A stretch of DNA of 64,000 bases from Escherichia coli. GTDB taxonomy: Bacteria; Pseudomonadota; Gammaproteobacteria; Enterobacterales; Enterobacteriaceae. The notes under the pieces are model-generated. The model ran no database searches. It was given only the letters and a program-made list of their open reading frames with translations, and was not told the origin of the DNA. Of the stretch, positions 4,284 through 37,828 are shown piece by piece (within the stretch, counting starts at the first letter, position 1; each line of letters begins with the position of its first letter). The stretch is from the NCBI RefSeq assembly GCF_030013205.1, contig NZ_CP122648.1; one strand, 5' to 3'. Made by a program: the position numbers and the translations under genes.

Positions 4284-4349
4284 TATTCCTCCGGTTTAAA
4301 ATCACCCGGCAGTCAATTCTTTTTATTCAGGCGAAAAATTCCCCCTGCG

Positions 4350-5075
4350 TTATTCCATTACGCCCGTCATTTTGGGGGTAAGTGCGCCATAATCATTTAT
4401 TGTTCGGTAAGTAATATTGCTTCCTGCATCAGAAGGCAATTTAACCGTGCTTTCGCCCATTGGAGGCACCAATGCATTTTCAAGAACCCGGGTTCCGGCA
4501 TTCAACTCTGTTACCGTCAGGTAATAGGGTGTCGGGTTAATCAGAGTCAGAGAATTCGCGCTACGACGAAATCTTAATTTTTCTGCGGCCTGATCGGGTG
4601 GCAACGCTAATTTAGCCGGGCGATAGTACAGTTTAATGCGGCTGATAATTGCGAGCTGTAGCGTATTCTCAGTCAATTTTGATTTATCCATTGACGGAAT
4701 CGCTTTAACGTTCATCCAGAATAAACTTTCCCGATCCTGTGGCAATTGGTTATTTGTTGCATCAAGAATACGTAAGGTATTCTCTTTTTTTCCCTTCATC
4801 GCAAACAGAGGTGGCGTCACGATAAAACGACCATCCTTTACACCATCGGCATTTTCCACCCATGATTGAATTAAATAGGTGCTATTTTCATCATTATTTG
4901 TCACGGCAAGTTGCACTTGTTTTTGCCCTGCCGGATAAATTACGCGAGTCGCACCTAAGGCCACTCCCGCTTCGGCGCGTCCGGCAACCATCATTGCCAT
5001 GAACATCAGGATACCTGCCAGCAAGCAGAATGTTATTTCCTGCGATTTCCTTACATTGACGTTTTTATTACTCAC
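4350..5075 (-). CDS. fimC: FimC periplasmic fimbrial chaperone (241 aa)
   Basis: ORF MSNKNVNVRKSQEITFCLLAGILMFMAMMVAGRAEAGVALGATRVIYPAGQKQVQLAVTNN...; PapD-like chaperone. Confidence 0.95.
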   Translation of the reverse strand: MSNKNVNVRKSQEITFCLLAGILMFMAMMVAGRAEAGVALGATRVIYPAGQKQVQLAVTNNDENSTYLIQSWVENADGVKDGRFIVTPPLFAMKGKKENTLRILDATNNQLPQDRESLFWMNVKAIPSMDKSKLTENTLQLAIISRIKLYYRPAKLALPPDQAAEKLRFRRSANSLTLINPTPYYLTVTELNAGTRVLENALVPPMGESTVKLPSDAGSNITYRTINDYGALTPKMTGVME

Positions 5076-5111
5076 TGTCCTGTTCCTGTTATCACATTAT
5101 CTGCTGAACAA

Positions 5112-5651
5112 TTACTGATAGGTTAAAGAGAACCAGGCCTGGGCATTGGCGATGCCGCCAGTAACCCGACGCCCGGTAGCACGATATTTGGCGATGAAAT
5201 GTAGCGAAGTAGAGCCTGAGTAAAGCCGTTTCCAGTTTGCTGGAGGACGATTAATCGGTACGAGGTTTCCTTCATCATCAAACAACGCTACGCCAATATT
5301 GGTGGCTATCCCTGGCCCCTCTCCCACGGAAAGCACATCTGGATTTTTACCATCCGCGACACCGTGAAACGCCACACCCACACGTTCACTCACCACCGTG
5401 CTACATTCCCGTAAATGAATAACAAAAGGCACCGGTGCGCTATCTTCCCCTACCGCATGAAACCGGTTACTGCTGATTTGCCCCATATTGACTGTCATTT
5501 GTTTATCACCGGCTTCAATCCGGCAAGTTTCCGCAATAATGACGCCCTGAAATTGCATATTTCCGCCGGGCAGCGTGGTGTTCCATTTATTTCCGGCCAG
5601 AGCAAACATTGGCAGCAACGACGCTAATAGAAATAATCTCTTCCTTTTCAT
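5112..5651 (-). CDS. fimI: FimI fimbrial protein (179 aa from Met-45 of the track ORF)
   Basis: Track ORF 5112-5783 contains [20 protein letters not shown]...; the upstream extension would overlap fimA, so the internal Met is taken as start. Confidence 0.8.
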
Positions 5652-5715
5652 CGTTATTTTTATCGCACAAGGGTGGGCATCCCTGCCCGTAATGACGTCC
5701 CTGAACCTGGGTAGG

Positions 5716-6270
5716 TTATTGATACTGAACCTTGAAGGTCGCATCCGCATTAGCAGCACCCGGGGTTGCCTCGCCGATTGCATAATAACGCGCCTGGAAC
5801 GGAATGGTGTTGGTACCGTTATTCAGGGTTGTTTGTGCACTAAATGTCGCACCGTCCAGCGTCAGCTCATTTCCTGTTCTGTCCAGTATCTGCACACCAA
5901 CATTTGTTGCGCTACCCGCAGCTGAACTCTGCAGAGCCAGTACTTTAGGATGAGCACTGTCAATCGCAGTCCCCAAGAAGGCAACAGCGGCTTTTGTGGC
6001 AACACTGGTATCGCAATCATTCAGCTGAATGTTAAAACCGACAGCAGAGCTGGTTGCTCCAGTCTGCTTCAGACTAGCGGTACGAACCTGGCCCAACTGA
6101 ACGGTTTGATCAACAGAGCCTGCATCAACTGCGCAAGCGGCGTTAACAACTTCCCCTTTAAAGTGAACGGTCCCACCATTTACCGTCGTGGGTGTAGTTT
6201 CAGCCAGAGCCGCTGTAGAACTCAGGGACAGAGCCGACAGAACAACAATTGCCAGAGTTTTAATTTTCAT
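5716..6270 (-). CDS. fimA: FimA major type 1 fimbrial subunit (184 aa; allele appears to differ from the K-12 sequence as recalled)
   Basis: [26 protein letters not shown]...[10 protein letters not shown]; major pilin signal peptide and C-terminal motif; first gene downstream of fimS. Confidence 0.93.
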
Positions 6271-6389
6271 ACTGCTTTCCTTTCAAAAAACTATTTCTAA
6301 ATCGACATGGGCAGTCGTTCCGTACACTTTGTTTTGTCAACGAGTTTGACTGCCAACACTGCACAGTTTCCCCCCAAAAGATGAAACAT

Positions 6390-6704
6390 TTGGGGCCATT
6401 TTGACTCATAGAGGAAAGCATCGCGCACAAACTTTTTCAGTTTATTTGTTGACTTTATATTCTATTGTTATCTTTATTTATAGATTTTTATATTGCATGA
6501 GGTGGTTTTTGGAGAGAAGAATGAGGAAGTTGCTTCGAGACACAGAAACGTTAGCTTTACATTTAGCGGAGGTGATGTGAAATTAATTTACAAGAGAAAT
6601 GATTTACATATCAAACAGTTAGATGCTTTTTGTCGTTTTATAATATTTTTATGCTTGAGAAAAAATACGTAACTTATTTATGATATGGACAGTTTTGGCC
6701 CCAA
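6390..6704. promoter_or_regulatory. fimS: fimS invertible phase-variation switch flanked by 9-bp inverted repeats TTGGGGCCA (6390-6398) and TGGCCCCAA (6696-6704)
   Basis: Perfect 9-bp inverted repeats about 300 bp apart between fimE and fimA; AT-rich interior. Confidence 0.9.
6655..6685 (+). promoter_or_regulatory. Sigma70-type fimA promoter inside fimS (TTGAGA, 17-18 bp spacer, TATGATA), here pointing toward fimE
   Basis: -35 TTGAGA at 6655-6660 and -10 TATGATA at 6679-6685 on the plus strand, a few bp inside the fimE-proximal inverted repeat. Confidence 0.6.
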
Positions 6705-6751
6705 TTGTCTTGTATTTATTTGTTTTTTACCTTTACTATCAATAAGTTAAA

Positions 6752-7348
6752 TTAAACCTCTTCTCTTTTTAATTTTTCGTTTATAAGATTATTTCTTTCC
6801 CATAATCCGGCAAAACGAGCAGCATTACTGGCGGTATAACGCACAGTATGGCGAATATTTCGATGCCCGAGATAATCCTGAATTAAACGGGTATCTGCAC
6901 CACGCTCCGCCAGTTCATAACCGCAAGCATGCCTTAACATATGAGGATGAGTCTGCGTTACGGTTCCAGCTTCAATACCGGCATCGCGAATAATGCGATA
7001 GGCCTGCTGGCGAGAAAGCCGACTCCCGCGGCGAGAAATAAATATAGCGTCGGTCCGGTCAGCGCCTTTCCAGTTAGCACGTTCCTGGGTCCAGCGTTCC
7101 ACGGCTTCACGCTCATCAAAACGTAACGGGTGAACGGTAGAAAATCCGTTCTTCAGTCGGCGAATATTTATTCGACCTTCATTAAGGTCAAGGTCCTGAT
7201 AATGCAGATCAAGCAGTTCACTAATACGCATCCCATGCCGATATGCCAACAGAATAAGACAATAATCTCTGGCTCCCGTTGCCCCGTAACAAACCGCCTG
7301 CATCATGGCCTGAACTTCTTTACCGGTAAGATAACGACGTTTACTCAC
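6752..7348 (-). CDS. fimE: FimE tyrosine recombinase (198 aa), ON-to-OFF switching
   Basis: ORF MSKRRYLTGKEVQAMMQAVCYGATGARDYCLILLAYRHGMRISELL...HPHMLRHACGYELAERGADTRLIQDYLGHRNIRHTVRYT. Confidence 0.95.
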   Translation of the reverse strand: MSKRRYLTGKEVQAMMQAVCYGATGARDYCLILLAYRHGMRISELLDLHYQDLDLNEGRINIRRLKNGFSTVHPLRFDEREAVERWTQERANWKGADRTDAIFISRRGSRLSRQQAYRIIRDAGIEAGTVTQTHPHMLRHACGYELAERGADTRLIQDYLGHRNIRHTVRYTASNAARFAGLWERNNLINEKLKREEV

Positions 7349-7824
7349 AATAGTAGTACTCCTGACTGAGATATATTTGAATGAATACCTATAGGAAACC
7401 TCAATCGGTCAAAATTAGCCCAATAGATAAAAAGATAACCACACACGAAGTGATGTGGCTATCAGTCAATTACATTAAATATCATACAAAAATAAAATAT
7501 CACTGATGTGATAACATCTATTTTCATTGATTTGATTCAATATAACAATAGATTGCAGTGGATTAACTTCCAGTTGCTTAAAAAATAAAGAAAAAATGTG
7601 AAAACAGATGAATTTAAGTGATGTGTAAATTTATGAATGATTTTGTTTATTTATTTTGAAGAACATAAACCATTGTATTTTGTATGGATATGGTTAACTT
7701 AATGTTTATTATTATAATTAAGAATCACACTTACAATAACATCAATTAATAAATGGTTAATCATTTTTGATATATCGTAAGAATAATGTAGTTTTTAACA
7801 CCATCCCTGGTATCTCAACTATCT

Positions 7825-8427
7825 CTATAAAACAGCGTGACGCTGTCGTCCTCTGGCCCTATCCCAGATGCCGTAAAAACGCCCTGCATTGCTGGCGGTA
7901 TACCAGACAGTATGACGAATATTGCGATGCCCAAGATAATCCTGGATAAGTCGCGTATCTATTCCCATATTCGCCAAAGCAAAACCACACGAATGGCGTA
8001 ACATGTGCGGATGAATCTCCAGTGACAACCCGGCATTACCACCGGAAGTCGAGATAATATGGTAAAACTGTTGCCGAGAAAGCGGATTCCCCTTACGCGA
8101 TAAAAATACCCATTCGCTCTCAGCATGCGGGTACGAAGTACGGATACTCAACCAGTTTTTTAAAGCCTGAACTTCTTTGTTCAATAGCGGGTGCGTTGTT
8201 GAAAAGCCTTTTTTTAATCGATGGATATAGATACACTTTGCCTTAAGATCAATATCCGAAATCCTCAATCGACAAATTTCACTCGCCCGGAAACCATGAA
8301 TAAAACAAAGCAAAGTCAGACAATAATTACGTGCTGCATGAGGCCCGGTATTTGCTGCTTTAAGGAGTGATTCGATTTCACTATGGGTCAGGAAGTTCCT
8401 TTTTTTGTTATCAGCCTTATTCTTCAT
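7825..8427 (-). CDS. fimB: FimB tyrosine recombinase (200 aa)
   Basis: ORF MKNKADNKKRNFLTHSEIESLLKAANTGPHAARNYCLTLLCFIHGFRASEICRL...; paralog of fimE upstream of it. Confidence 0.95.
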   Translation of the reverse strand: MKNKADNKKRNFLTHSEIESLLKAANTGPHAARNYCLTLLCFIHGFRASEICRLRISDIDLKAKCIYIHRLKKGFSTTHPLLNKEVQALKNWLSIRTSYPHAESEWVFLSRKGNPLSRQQFYHIISTSGGNAGLSLEIHPHMLRHSCGFALANMGIDTRLIQDYLGHRNIRHTVWYTASNAGRFYGIWDRARGRQRHAVL

Positions 8428-34744: not shown

Positions 34745-35590
34745 TTATTCATTTAAAGATTCAAGAAATGTCCAGCCTTTATGAGTAACATAATACATTT
34801 GTCCTTTTGCCCCTCTTTCAATCACAAAATCAAAGGATAACAGTTCGTTAAGTGCGCCCTCCCAACGGGCTACCTCTCTAGCCGAACTTCCACCAAAGGA
34901 TTGATTTCCCGCTTGAATATCCGTGCCACCTAAATGCCTTATCACATAAATTGTTCCGCTATCATCGACACATGCTAATTTCAGCAAACTGAGTGCATCG
35001 GCGGACAAATTACTTTCTGGCAAAGATTGACTTGTATTCGCATCAGGAGAATTGTTAATGGTAGATATAAGAGAAGACAAATAAGGGCTACTAGAAATAA
35101 TTATCGAAAGTTGCCTACGGACTTTTTCTTTGAAATCAGATAAGTCATTAAAAGACTCTATCAATCCCTTTTGCATGCACTCAGTTTTGAACAATTTAAG
35201 AGACTCATATTGTTCTCTATCAAGGCTTTCAGGGGCAACAGGCTTTGAGGAAAAGTAAATCATTGCCGGTTTTCCCGCATTCAAATGACGGTGGATTTCT
35301 TCGACTGTTCCGCTGGCCTCGTTCCCAGTCGGTGAGCCTAGACGAGTCCAAAACACACCGATTAATAAATCACAATCTACTAATAATCTTTGATTAATCA
35401 ACTCCTGAGGCCTAACTCCTAATTCGGGTGATGTATGAGTTTCCCATCCAATTGGTGTCAACATTACTTTTGAACGAGCTGAATTTATATCATTCCACTC
35501 ATGGATCATTTCACGAATGACTTGTCTCTCTTCAGCGACATCACCAGGAGAAGCAATCATTACAGGGATAACAGTTGCTGTGTAAGCCAT
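34745..35590 (-). CDS. Two-domain hypothetical protein (281 aa) with DUF4062-like N-terminal domain
   Basis: N-terminus VIPVMIASPGDVAEERQVIREMI...VDCDLLIGVFWTRLGSPTGNEASGTVEEIHRHLNAGKPAMIYFSS matches the DUF4062 pattern (S..D..EER ... CD..I.....R.G ... SGT..E ... GKP); C-terminal ~120 aa unassigned; start 13 nt after recombinase stop. Confidence 0.65.
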   Translation of the reverse strand: MAYTATVIPVMIASPGDVAEERQVIREMIHEWNDINSARSKVMLTPIGWETHTSPELGVRPQELINQRLLVDCDLLIGVFWTRLGSPTGNEASGTVEEIHRHLNAGKPAMIYFSSKPVAPESLDREQYESLKLFKTECMQKGLIESFNDLSDFKEKVRRQLSIIISSSPYLSSLISTINNSPDANTSQSLPESNLSADALSLLKLACVDDSGTIYVIRHLGGTDIQAGNQSFGGSSAREVARWEGALNELLSFDFVIERGAKGQMYYVTHKGWTFLESLNE

Positions 35591-35603
35591 AAACTCTCCA
35601 TAT

Positions 35604-36164
35604 TCAATCGGTAATAGCTGCTACAGTCGCTCTTGAAACGCCATATTGACGCGCTAACGCACTGATACTCAAACCGCTATTCTTTTTCTCTAAAATCTCT
35701 CTACGGGCTTCTGACGCGATTTTAGGAGGTCTGCCCAATTTCTTACCTTCGGCTTTTGCTCGTGATAGTCCCGCCTGAGTGCGCTCAATCAGCAGATCAC
35801 GCTCCATCTCCGCAACCGCGGCGAGCATAGATAATAGCAACTTCCCAGCGGCAGAAGTGAGATCTGTGTTACCAAGCTGGTGGACAAGAACCTTGATATT
35901 ACGGTCAGCCAGCGCCCTTACCGTTTGCAAGACGTCAATCGCATCACGCCCCAGACGATCAAGCTTCGCTACCACCAACGTTTCACCATCGCGGATTTTA
36001 TTGAGCATTTCAGAAAATGCTTTACGTTGCATTGCCGGAACCTTCCCGCTAACAACATCGGCAAACCAGTAATCAATTTGCCACCCAGCCTGCCCAAGCT
36101 CCAGCCGTTGGTTCTCAGTATCCTGCTGCGATGTCGAAACACGTCCGTAGCCAAAAGTTGCCAT
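35604..36164 (-). CDS. Small serine recombinase, resolvase/invertase family (186 aa)
   Basis: ATG at 36164 with SD GGAG; MATFGYGRVSTSQQDTENQ... (catalytic Ser region), ...VAKLDRLGRD..., C-terminal HTH LSISALARQYGVSRATV. Confidence 0.85.
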   Translation of the reverse strand: MATFGYGRVSTSQQDTENQRLELGQAGWQIDYWFADVVSGKVPAMQRKAFSEMLNKIRDGETLVVAKLDRLGRDAIDVLQTVRALADRNIKVLVHQLGNTDLTSAAGKLLLSMLAAVAEMERDLLIERTQAGLSRAKAEGKKLGRPPKIASEARREILEKKNSGLSISALARQYGVSRATVAAITD

Positions 36165-36186
36165 TGTTATCTCCCCATCTGACCCC

Positions 36187-36284
36187 TGCCAGAAAACGAG
36201 GCCAACATTAGGATGGCCTGCCAGAAAAGCCAAGGCTATTTTTCCAACAGTGTGAAAGCGTGCGATTGGGAGGTGCCAGAAAAC
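36187..36284. repeat. Three direct copies of TGCCAGAAAA(C/G) upstream of the recombinase gene (candidate res-like site / iterons)
   Basis: Copies at 36187-36197, 36219-36229 and 36274-36284, 23-120 bp upstream of the recombinase start. Confidence 0.5.
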
Positions 36285-36356
36285 GGTCGTTTGTTGGCGC
36301 TTAAAACGGATAAAGACATGTTAGGCTGAAACCATCACTTCATAAGGACAACCGAA

Positions 36357-36823
36357 ATGATTAAAGACGCGATTTTTCACCGTGCGGTCAATATCGCTAC
36401 TCGTTATCACGAGTCTGGGACGAATCAAAACCATATGCCCTTTTCATAGGGCTAAACCCTTCATACGCCGATGCTGAGAAGGATGATCGCACCTTGAGCC
36501 GCTGCATATCGTTTGCCAAAAGCAGGGGCTACGGTGGCGTATACATGGCCAACCTGTTCGCATTCGTTCACACCCAGCGACATGAAATGATGAAAGCGTC
36601 TGATCCCATTGGCAAAGATAACGATAGCCACTTGATACGTCTTGTTAGCGGTGCCGGACTGGTTGTCGCCGCATGGGGAAATGAAGGAAGACACCTCAAA
36701 CGCTCAACGACCGTCCGACAGCTATTGCCAGAGAGCACAATGTGCTTCGTCTTAAACGCTACAGGTGAGCCGAAGCACCCTTTGTATATGAAAAACGACA
36801 GTGTTCTCATACCTTTAGGTTAA
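36357..36823 (+). pseudogene. DUF1643-family gene disrupted by a +1 frameshift in a T5 run
   Basis: ATG at 36357 reads MIKDAIFHRAVN... to a stop after 30 codons; the -1 frame continues ...SPCGQYRYSLSRVWDESKPYALFIGLNPSYADAEKDDRTLSRCISFAKSRGYGGVYMANLFAF... (DUF1643 hallmark); frames join if one T of 36373-36377 is removed. Confidence 0.65.
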
Positions 36824-36832
36824 CATCGATAA

Positions 36833-36855
36833 CTGCGTTCAGAATATGAACGCAG
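36833..36855. terminator. Perfect 9-bp-stem palindrome CTGCGTTCA-GAATA-TGAACGCAG after the DUF1643 gene (terminator or operator)
   Basis: Inverted repeat directly downstream of the stop at 36823. Confidence 0.4.
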
Positions 36856-37828
36856 CCATATGATATATATGACTTTTCTTTAAAATGATGGTGTGCTAGC
36901 TTCTCTCCTGACACCTACCTCATGCGGTAAACCGGTCCGGGTAGGTGGAGATCACCGCTGTTTAGCGGAAGACGTCAGGATGGGAACTCTGCGTAACGTT
37001 GATTGTGGTAGGTAGGGCGCGCAAGCGTTTGATGCAGCCAAGCAGAGGGTGAAAGTAGCTATCGGCGGATTCTTGAGTAGCTTCTTTTGCGCATAATGCA
37101 TCTTTCAAGAAAGGTCGTCACACCACGAGGAAGACTTGATCTTCATCTGGCAAGGGGAACCGAGCAACCTACAGGCTATCTTCTCAGATGGCCTTATGGT
37201 TGATATGTCCGGCTTCCCCCCCGAGGAAGGGTTTACATCTTAAAGAACAAGTTATGTTTTAACATTTTTAACAATTACACTTCTCTGCTGTTTGGTGTCT
37301 TATGGCGTTGCCGTCAAAAGTAAACCTGCCGTTTTTACCTCTCCTGCGTAACAACCAAATACGAACCAGAAGCTGCTAACGTTCAACGTGTTCGCGGTGT
37401 AAATGCAGCCAGATAAGTTGGGAGCGAAAAAGTGGATGCCCTAGGTTTGGAAGCGCCCCTCTCAGGCATAGCGTCCGAAAATTTCCACGGCGGCAGGCTT
37501 ATCCTTATAGAGCCAAACAGACTCAAAAGTTAAGAAGCGCGGTAAAGCTTAAAGCTCGCCCAGATTTCTCATTGATTGCTCGAACTCCGCTACGCTTGTT
37601 TCAACTGGCTTCGCCAGTCACTCTATGAGAGCGCCGCGAATTCTGCACCATGATTTCGACTACCTTCTTTAAAACACTCGCCAGAGAGCCTTACAGCGCG
37701 TTTGAACCGCATATCGCAGCTTTTGCTTACGGATGACTGTCTGATTAGCAGTAGCTTCATGGCCCAGTCCGGTTTACTTTATTGCTATCAACAAGGGAGC
37801 CGTCCAGAGGCGACGCGGAGATAATGCT

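Follow-up and report, generated by a model that had tools for sequence, protein, structure and literature searches.

The region from position 36187 to 36299 of a 64,000-nucleotide stretch of Escherichia coli DNA (contig NZ_CP122648.1; the whole stretch is referred to as the window) lies upstream of a gene encoding a small serine recombinase. With a probability of roughly 0.8, this region is the res site of the adjacent serine resolvase, and three repeats located in it are the gene-proximal halves of its sites I, II, and III. As judged by comparison of related loci, the 113-bp region is composed of three predicted dimer-type recombinase sites, the geometry of which is fixed in 69 loci. A cognate res-like site for the recombinase had been proposed in a first-pass annotation of the window; this proposal is supported by the subsite architecture with its fixed geometry, by co-variation of half-sites and protein, by the position of a conserved promoter, and by mosaic junctions which point to an evolutionary crossover at the centre of site I.

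Repeats upstream of the recombinase gene

TGCCAGAAAA is present in exact form at three positions of the window (starting at 36187, 36219, and 36274) and is otherwise absent from it. Repeats 1 (36187-36197) and 3 (36274-36284) read TGCCAGAAAAC, and repeat 2 (36219-36229) reads TGCCAGAAAAG. Three matches with one mismatch were found elsewhere in the window, with 2.5 expected by chance. No other 10-mer of the window occurs three times without overlap inside 100 bp, and a comparable triple occurred in none of 300 first-order Markov simulations. The coordinates given in the first-pass annotation proved to be exact, and both the 10-mer count and the simulations place the triple beyond chance.

The repeats are located in non-coding DNA 23-120 bp upstream of the recombinase start codon, and this spacing, also noted before, holds with the ATG at 36164. 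They were judged to be non-coding because this ATG is accompanied by the ribosome-binding site GGAGA, the RefSeq annotation gives 186 amino acids, and homologues carry insertions and deletions. A 209-amino acid open reading frame starting with TTG and extending over repeats 1 and 2 was rejected as an artefact on these grounds. An Rfam search of positions 35500-37000 at E ≤ 1 returned no structured RNA.

The three copies were correctly recognized as direct repeats; as functional units, they are predicted to be the gene-proximal halves of three dimer sites instead. The partner halves (CGCCAACAAACG, TGTTGGAAAAAT) would escape a reading of the raw sequence because they are degenerate. The imperfect palindrome noticed beside the middle copy is real, extends from 36225 to 36245, and forms the centre of site II.

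Conserved geometry of the res site

The comparison covered about 90 related loci. Among the diverged copies, seven (L002-L008) came from E. coli genomes, and 80 (L011-L090) were taken from a single genome of each species. The latter share 60-100% recombinase protein identity and originate from Enterobacteriaceae, Pseudomonas, Oxalobacteraceae, methanotrophs, and Desulfobulbaceae, i.e. from gamma-, beta-, and deltaproteobacteria. For locating site I, a palindrome score of our own design was applied over the range of 100-175 bp. Of 81 sequences, namely the 80 loci and the window, 69 contain a palindrome of the form 12+2+12 that is symmetric at 8 or more of the 12 positions and is situated 112-141 bp upstream of the start codon. 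These 69 were used for the later half-site map, which is independent of the scoring rule; its probe was the gene-side half of site I alone, and offsets were counted from the centre of site I.

The half-sites occupied nearly invariant positions. A forward half-site started at +37 in 53 of the 69 loci (II-L), a reverse half-site ended at +68/69 in 60, and another reverse half-site ended at +99/100 in 64 (III-R). The second half of site III was found either as an inverted copy from +68/69 (17 loci, the TGTTCA group) or as a direct copy ending at +87 (22-26 loci). In the window this half is degenerate; the inverted candidate GGCCATCCTAAT and the direct candidate GGCCAACATTAG each reach 5/10. The resulting layout across loci consists of a site I of 26 bp, a spacer of 24 bp, a site II of 31-32 bp, and a site III of 31-32 bp abutting site II, and the centre of site I is AC/GT or AA. 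Alignment of eight E. coli-type loci revealed that repeats 1 and 3 are kept (TGYCRGAAAAC) while their surroundings diverge; repeat 2 degenerates, and the adjoining core of site II, GCCAAGGCTAWTTTT, is invariant. The subsites of the window are listed in Table 1.

Co-variation of half-sites and recombinase

The outer bases of the half-sites vary by lineage (TGCCAG, TGTCAG, TGTTAG, TGTTGG, or TGTTCA), and within a locus the subsites agree with each other. Identity to the I-R half at positions 3-7 was 0.79 for II-R and 0.81 for III-R, as compared to means of 0.52 and 0.57 (maxima 0.63 and 0.68) for shuffled pairings; at I-L and II-L it amounted to 0.68-0.70. Over all subsites, the means of shuffled pairings were 0.47-0.57, with a maximum of 0.68; the observed value of every subsite exceeded its own shuffled maximum. 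Furthermore, the recognition helix tracks the half-site type: VSRAT is found with CCAG or TCAG, VSRAN with TTAG or TTGG, and ISRASVMR with TTCA. Relatedness of the loci inflates the apparent significance, and because the shuffle controls ignore this phylogenetic relatedness, the co-variation is regarded as supportive rather than probabilistic. A single architecture with at least three specificity classes nevertheless appears hard to explain otherwise.

A position-conserved candidate promoter within the accessory sites

The best sigma70-like match was located at the same position in about 60 of 76 loci, with a -35 element at +54/55 (the centre of site II), a 17-bp spacer, and a -10 element at +77/78 (within site III). 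The mean best score of these 76 loci was 8.5, as compared to 6.8 in control flanks. The corresponding pair of the window, TTGGCT-17-TAATGT, scores 7.5, which is weak and below the top-scoring match of the window; a generic promoter scan of the window found none in the intergenic region, and the promoter was called by its positional conservation across loci. By sequence alone, the promoter is inseparable from the second half of site III.

Mosaic junctions at the centre of site I

Among the 26 enterobacterial and Pseudomonas loci, 47 pairs were at least 90% identical over the 113-bp res and random (about 25%) distal to site I. Conversely, 19 pairs had distal flanks at least 90% identical and a diverged res. 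Comparison of the window with L006 gave 67-88% identity per 100-bp bin on the gene side (35123-36322), with 67-76% in the bins beside site I, and 99-100% on the distal side (36323-37422). The first gene-side mismatches are situated 9 and 11 bp from the centre, and the distal side has none. The outermost base of the distal half is C or T, and this variant segregates together with the flank carrying a DUF1643 gene and not with the recombinase allele. This flank (36300-37422 in the window, with the gene being a frameshifted pseudogene) shares 99-100% identity with its counterpart in islands that are only 67-88% identical on the recombinase side, and it therefore appears to have spread recently across recombinase alleles.

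Comparison with L002 showed the opposite pattern. Identity to the window was 99% up to about 36290, followed by no homology until the tRNA. The gene side of the window is identical to that of L002, L015, L016, and L092, and the first mismatch occurs 4 bp past the centre. L009 and L010 share the distal half and flank of L002 (TGTCATCAATCG...), there beside a different resolvase (47% identity), which has its own three-part site at 5850-6020 with the motifs GGTAGCA (three copies) and TGATGACACC (two copies). If the window is written as A-B and L009 as C-D, L002 would be A-D, joined at the centre of site I. L016 and L092 carry the same gene-side half with a third distal half (TGTAAGAAATCG), and L015 carries a fourth. 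At the loci inspected (L002, L015, L016, and L092), the variants seen at the junction are module replacements, and no inversions were found.

Apparently, natural exchange takes place within the interval from -4 to +9 around the site I centre, although this evidence is indirect and evolutionary. Since certain partners have no more than a few bases in common at the junction, homologous recombination is unlikely as the general cause. Recombination between elements at site I of res has been documented for Tn3-family transposons (PMC7157771).

Two side observations concern these loci. The L009 and L010 islands have no integrase between the tRNA and res. In L092, a pair of genes encoding an AAA-family ATPase and a UvrD-helicase (4302-8193), possibly a defence system, is located directly distal to the hybrid res; hence, variable cargo occurs on both sides of the site.

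Search for a second res site

A profile hidden Markov model (HMM) built from 26 enterobacterial res sites matched the window only at 36183-36298 (E 2e-37), and a profile of site I recovered only its own site (E 1e-5); the next matches of the res and site I profiles were noise (E ≥ 0.45). A scan of the window for 26-bp palindromes gave 17/24 for the best other site as compared to 21/24 for site I, and a scan with the consensus half-site found no second res or site I. The res region was detected by blastn at 747 places in 744 of 5,426 complete E. coli genomes (about 14%); the median was one copy per genome, and no genome had more than two. No tandem-island precursor was found at the locus inspected in ET745, one of three genomes with two matches; it contains an L002-type remnant beside IS1 and fimE.

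The first-pass annotation had considered that a partner site might render the DNA including a DUF4062-like gene invertible or deletable. The scans of the 64 kb by consensus, palindrome, and profile HMM were empty, no second repeat array is present in the window, and E. coli genomes carry a median of one copy; this idea was rejected.

Table 1. Features of the res site and of neighbouring genes in the window
Feature	Position	Strand	Remarks
Complete res site, 113 bp	36187-36299	minus (read towards recombinase gene)	Subsite map and profile HMM
Site I, predicted crossover site	36274-36299		26-bp imperfect palindrome TGCCAGAAAACG-GT-CGTTTGTTGGCG (12+2+12); repeat 3 is the gene-proximal half
Central dinucleotide GT (AC in gene orientation)	36286-36287		Predicted position of staggered cutting and strand exchange
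Spacer between sites I and II, 24 bp	36250-36273		Length conserved, sequence poorly conserved
Site II, predicted accessory site	36219-36249		31-bp inverted repeat TGCCAGAAAAGCC-AA-GGCTATTTTTCCAACA; repeat 2 is the gene-proximal half
Site III, predicted accessory site, gene-proximal	36187-36218		Repeat 1 (36187-36198) is the strong half
Candidate -35, TTGGCT	36228-36233	minus	Within site II
Candidate -10, TAATGT	36205-36210	minus	Within site III
Ribosome-binding site GGAGA	36170-36174	minus	From sequence
Recombinase start codon ATG	36164	minus
Small serine recombinase, 186 amino acids	35604-36164	minus	Intact; catalytic Ser in GYGRVSTSQQ, C-terminal helix-turn-helix
DUF4062-like gene	34745-35590	minus	Starts 13 bp past the recombinase stop codon; cargo, outside the res site
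AbiJ-NTD4-like protein	31623-32447	minus	PADLOC candidate PDC-S32 (6e-104); a further defence candidate on the island
Tyrosine integrase, 650 amino acids	38294-40246

Proposed mechanism and role

For binding, synapse topology, cleavage chemistry, selectivity, autoregulation, and the biological substrate, we infer the following scheme from Tn3, gamma-delta, and Sin, with the paradigm for synapsis and cleavage chemistry taken from Tn3 resolvase (PMC9943657). Recombinase dimers would bind all three subsites, site I serving as the crossover site and sites II and III as accessory sites. If one supercoiled molecule carries two res copies in direct repeat, an interwound synaptic complex would be built by the accessory sites. 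Dimers bound to site I would cut both strands around the GT at 36286-36287 in a Ser-mediated reaction leaving 2-nt 3' overhangs; upon rotation by 180 degrees and religation, the DNA between the two res copies would be resolved or deleted. The accessory sites would enforce selectivity for resolution. Pairing of res with a second copy would be only transient, and the substrate may be the excised island in dimeric form, islands arranged in tandem, or a cointegrate.

Recombinase bound at sites II and III would cover the -35 and -10 elements and occlude the promoter, which would result in autoregulation of the recombinase gene and here probably of the DUF4062-like gene as well. The res of Tn3 also carries the promoters, and TnpR represses them (PMC7157771).

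On an integrative island, the likely role would be to keep the excised or replicating circle monomeric or to collapse tandem arrays; such a role for small serine recombinases was suggested in a study of pipolins (PMC11551731). Over evolution, rare exchanges between non-identical res sites appear to have repeatedly swapped the module proximal to tRNA and integrase against the module containing recombinase and cargo. A hybrid of exactly the L002 type would result from deletion between the res sites of two tandem islands, one of them contributing the tRNA-proximal module and the other the distal module. As a tentative extension, which we regard as possible but rather doubtful, res may be the joint at which tRNA-integrated islands are re-assorted by resolvase-mediated deletion between non-identical res sites of tandem islands; this would explain the linkage of recombinase and defence genes and would place the DUF4062-like gene under a resolvase-repressed promoter. 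If this is true, expression of the DUF4062 protein, a putative TIR-like NADase, would be tied to resolvase occupancy and could, for example, be derepressed on entering a new cell.

Alternative explanations

Several observations weigh against assignment of the region as the res site of a resolvase. Its subsites of 26, 31-32, and 31-32 bp differ in size from those of Tn3 (28, 34, and 25 bp, derived from PMC9943657). The degenerate distal half of site III overlaps the -10 element, and the apparent half-site may reflect conservation of the promoter. The evidence for binding, cleavage, and resolution is computational. The host is a tRNA-integrated island with a tyrosine integrase and not a replicative transposon or plasmid. 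The natural substrate is hypothetical because the window contains no second res and most genomes carry only one. Finally, the presumed parents of the L002 hybrid differ in the central dinucleotide (AC and TT). In the case of Hin, a mismatch of the core blocks ligation in the recombinant configuration (PMC4817059); the L002 junction hence requires an infrequent event, a heteroduplex that was replicated or repaired, or a parent that is not among the sampled loci.

An explanation without any recombination at the locus would be that the half-sites are autoregulatory operators, and that the recombinase mainly or only represses transcription of its own gene and of the DUF4062-like gene. The promoter lies within sites II and III, the window has no partner site, and TnpR of Tn3 was first recognized as a repressor (PMC7157771). 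However, the recombinase retains intact catalytic motifs that are conserved across 60-100% identity, conservation is highest in the distal 26-bp palindrome upstream of the promoter, and dozens of natural mosaics switch at the centre of this palindrome, so that we consider a pure operator quite improbable. These mosaics could also have been produced by the recombinase integrating circular modules at site I by intermolecular fusion, the distal flanks being captured cassettes. At least four unrelated distal modules (DUF1643, the L002 flank, AAA-ATPase/UvrD, and that of L015), each with its own half-site, are found on the same gene-side half, defence genes occur on both sides of the site, and mobilization of defence genes by serine recombinases was proposed in a preprint (PMC12632615). 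Such capture is nevertheless unlikely: res systems with accessory sites select strongly against intermolecular fusion (PMC9943657), neither a circular cassette nor a second junction was identified, and deletion between two res sites of tandem islands explains the same mosaics.

RecA-dependent exchange within the short conserved res, independent of the resolvase, is a very unlikely source of the junctions. Site I and parts of res are conserved enough among enterobacteria for rare exchange (about 21 identical bp between the window and L006), but the partners of L002, L016, and L092 share only a few bases around the centre and still have the junction at the same position. Moreover, longer identical stretches in the recombinase and helix-turn-helix (HTH) genes are not preferred switch points in comparisons of the window with L002 and L006. 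The least probable explanation, already largely refuted, is that of an inversion switch in which site I corresponds to hix or gix and a second copy elsewhere on the island renders a segment including the DUF4062-like gene invertible or deletable. It would agree with the 12+2+12, 26-bp geometry reported for hix (PMC4817059), with the fact that Gin and Hin are by sequence nearly as close to the recombinase as gamma-delta resolvase, and with the best NCBIfam match, the Mpi master invertase family NF009949. This match reached 98.4 bits, far under the cut-off of 272, and no NCBIfam family scored above its cut-off; furthermore, the lack of a second site in 64 kb, the median of one copy per genome, the module replacements at the inspected junctions, and the presence in all loci of two conserved accessory sites, which invertases lack, argue against a switch.

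Relation to known recombination systems

Tn3 and gamma-delta share with the system described here a small serine recombinase with a C-terminal HTH, a res directly upstream of its gene, and three dimer subsites (predicted here) composed of 12-bp motifs. In both cases, site III is next to the gene and the crossover site at the far end, a promoter (a candidate here) lies within res, and natural exchange between elements maps to site I (PMC9943657, PMC7157771). The total length is 114 bp for Tn3 res (PMC9943657) and 113 bp here, and the distance between the centres of sites I and II is about 53 bp in both (computed for Tn3 from the 22-bp linker in PMC9943657). Apart from the subsite sizes, Tn3 differs by its spacers of 22 and 5 bp (derived from PMC9943657; 24 and 0 bp here) and its AT centre (non-palindromic AC/GT here). 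Because of these differences in subsite sizes, spacers, and centre, the res is by its sequence placed outside the Tn3/gamma-delta subfamily, and it is predicted to work like a Tn3-type res. Tn3 possesses tnpA and transposon ends, which are missing here. No Tn3-type transposase was found in the annotation of a matching genome or among the large open reading frames; instead of tnpA and terminal inverted repeats, as expected for a cointegrate-resolution module of the Tn3 family, the context consists of tRNA-Leu, a tyrosine integrase, and an island.

DNA invertases such as Hin, Gin, Cin, and Pin act on two inverted 26-bp sites, have no accessory sites for the recombinase, and use a Fis-bound enhancer instead. 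The present locus differs by its two conserved accessory sites, and the window contains neither an inverted partner site nor an invertible segment. The A-tract half-site presumably resembles hix. Shared features are the 26-bp crossover site with a 2-bp core (PMC4817059) and a comparable protein similarity. In some lineages, site III is arranged as a direct repeat, which is reminiscent of site II of Sin; Sin and beta are resolvases with direct-repeat accessory sites. The locus described here differs from them in that it has three recombinase subsites, no HU/IHF site is evident, and the relationship is distant.

With regard to layout, islands of the SGI1 family also harbor a resolvase gene with an upstream res in the variable part of an integrative mobilizable island which is rich in defence and toxin-antitoxin genes, and whole segments containing res were replaced between these islands (PMC9035990). 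SGI1 differs by integration at trmE, a different backbone, and a res known mainly as target for insertion of integrons (Tn402-type). Small serine recombinases linked to defence (RADS bait EF_B0058; PinQ/PinR) likewise reside beside an anti-phage candidate, here probably co-transcribed. The RADS reports give no recombination site and PinQ/PinR relate to inversion, whereas the site architecture here is of the resolvase type.

No description of this resolvase family or its site was found in the literature; the kind of system is familiar, and the unusual point is its occurrence on tRNA-integrated islands with defence cargo. The recombinase bears only generic names in public clusters, e.g. "recombinase family protein". 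Such a protein, present also in many proteobacteria, can now be described as a putative defined system with base-level predictions for binding sites, cleavage point, and promoter, and related islands appear to have exchanged integrase-proximal and cargo modules at one specific dinucleotide. A 2025 preprint reported that small serine recombinases mark defence loci and left their role open (PMC12632615); a resolvase architecture, not an inversion switch, would offer a testable mechanism for this association in this family. About 70 co-varying pairs of protein and site may additionally serve as a resource for studying and engineering the DNA specificity of serine recombinases.

Recombinase and genomic context

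The recombinase contains the Pfam domains Resolvase (8.8e-37) and HTH_7 (9.6e-6). Among solved relatives, gamma-delta resolvase matched with 1.4e-25, Gin with 6.5e-23, and Tn3 resolvase with 2.5e-22; similarity to the gamma-delta and Tn3 resolvases is about equal to that with Gin and Hin. The alignment with gamma-delta resolvase extends from end to end, including GY.RVSTSQQ and LDRLGRD. The Tn552 Bin3/Sin-type chain is distant (E 2e-14).

The window was matched at 100% in many chromosomes of porcine enterotoxigenic E. coli. The locus lies in a genomic island at tRNA-Leu (leuX) with the following order of genes leftwards from the tRNA: tyrosine integrase, NIPSNAP, frameshifted DUF1643, res, recombinase, DUF4062-like, membrane protein, HTH, AbiJ-like, insertion sequence fragments, and the fec operon. 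The DUF4062-like protein matched PADLOC PDC-S60 (6e-27) and was just under the cut-off of Pfam DUF4062. DUF4062 proteins were reported in a 2026 preprint as TIR-like NADases of the anti-phage system 'Swarozyc' (bioRxiv 10.64898/2026.05.01.722283). The DUF4062-like gene is probably co-transcribed with the recombinase gene from the res promoter, and the tight spacing of the 13-bp type is also found in L011, L021, L024, and L025. Co-transcription with the downstream gene as a general rule was rejected: the genes that follow the recombinase gene are more often oriented towards it, and only the DUF4062 cassette is tightly coupled to it.

In related loci, the recombinase is found near DRT9, a type II restriction-modification system, PD-Lambda-1, PD-T4-7, SIR2, GmrSD, HipA, and a DUF4062 protein, among others. 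The stretch from the recombinase to the HTH gene (33485-35600 in the window; also in L005, L007, and L012-L028) behaves like a defence hotspot with conserved flanks. The HTH gene is conserved at 60-93% identity, and the cargo differs by island (DUF4062 with a membrane protein, AIPR, two hypothetical proteins, and others). No half-site-like sequences were found at the borders of this cargo stretch.

Near-identical copies of the enterobacterial locus were present in assemblies assigned to unrelated phyla, namely a Collinsella metagenome-assembled genome (MAG; L011), Martelella (L014), a Bacillota MAG (L023), and Chryseobacterium (L026); contamination or mis-binning is most likely. In several Oxalobacteraceae (L068, 6746-6820; L085, 6667-6743; L040, L051, and L048), a tRNA gene (Val, Arg, His, or Thr) has its 3' end at a distance of 100-700 bp from the end of the recombinase gene, which is therefore the terminal gene of the island. 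L068 additionally encodes a large serine recombinase about 0.8 kb upstream of res.

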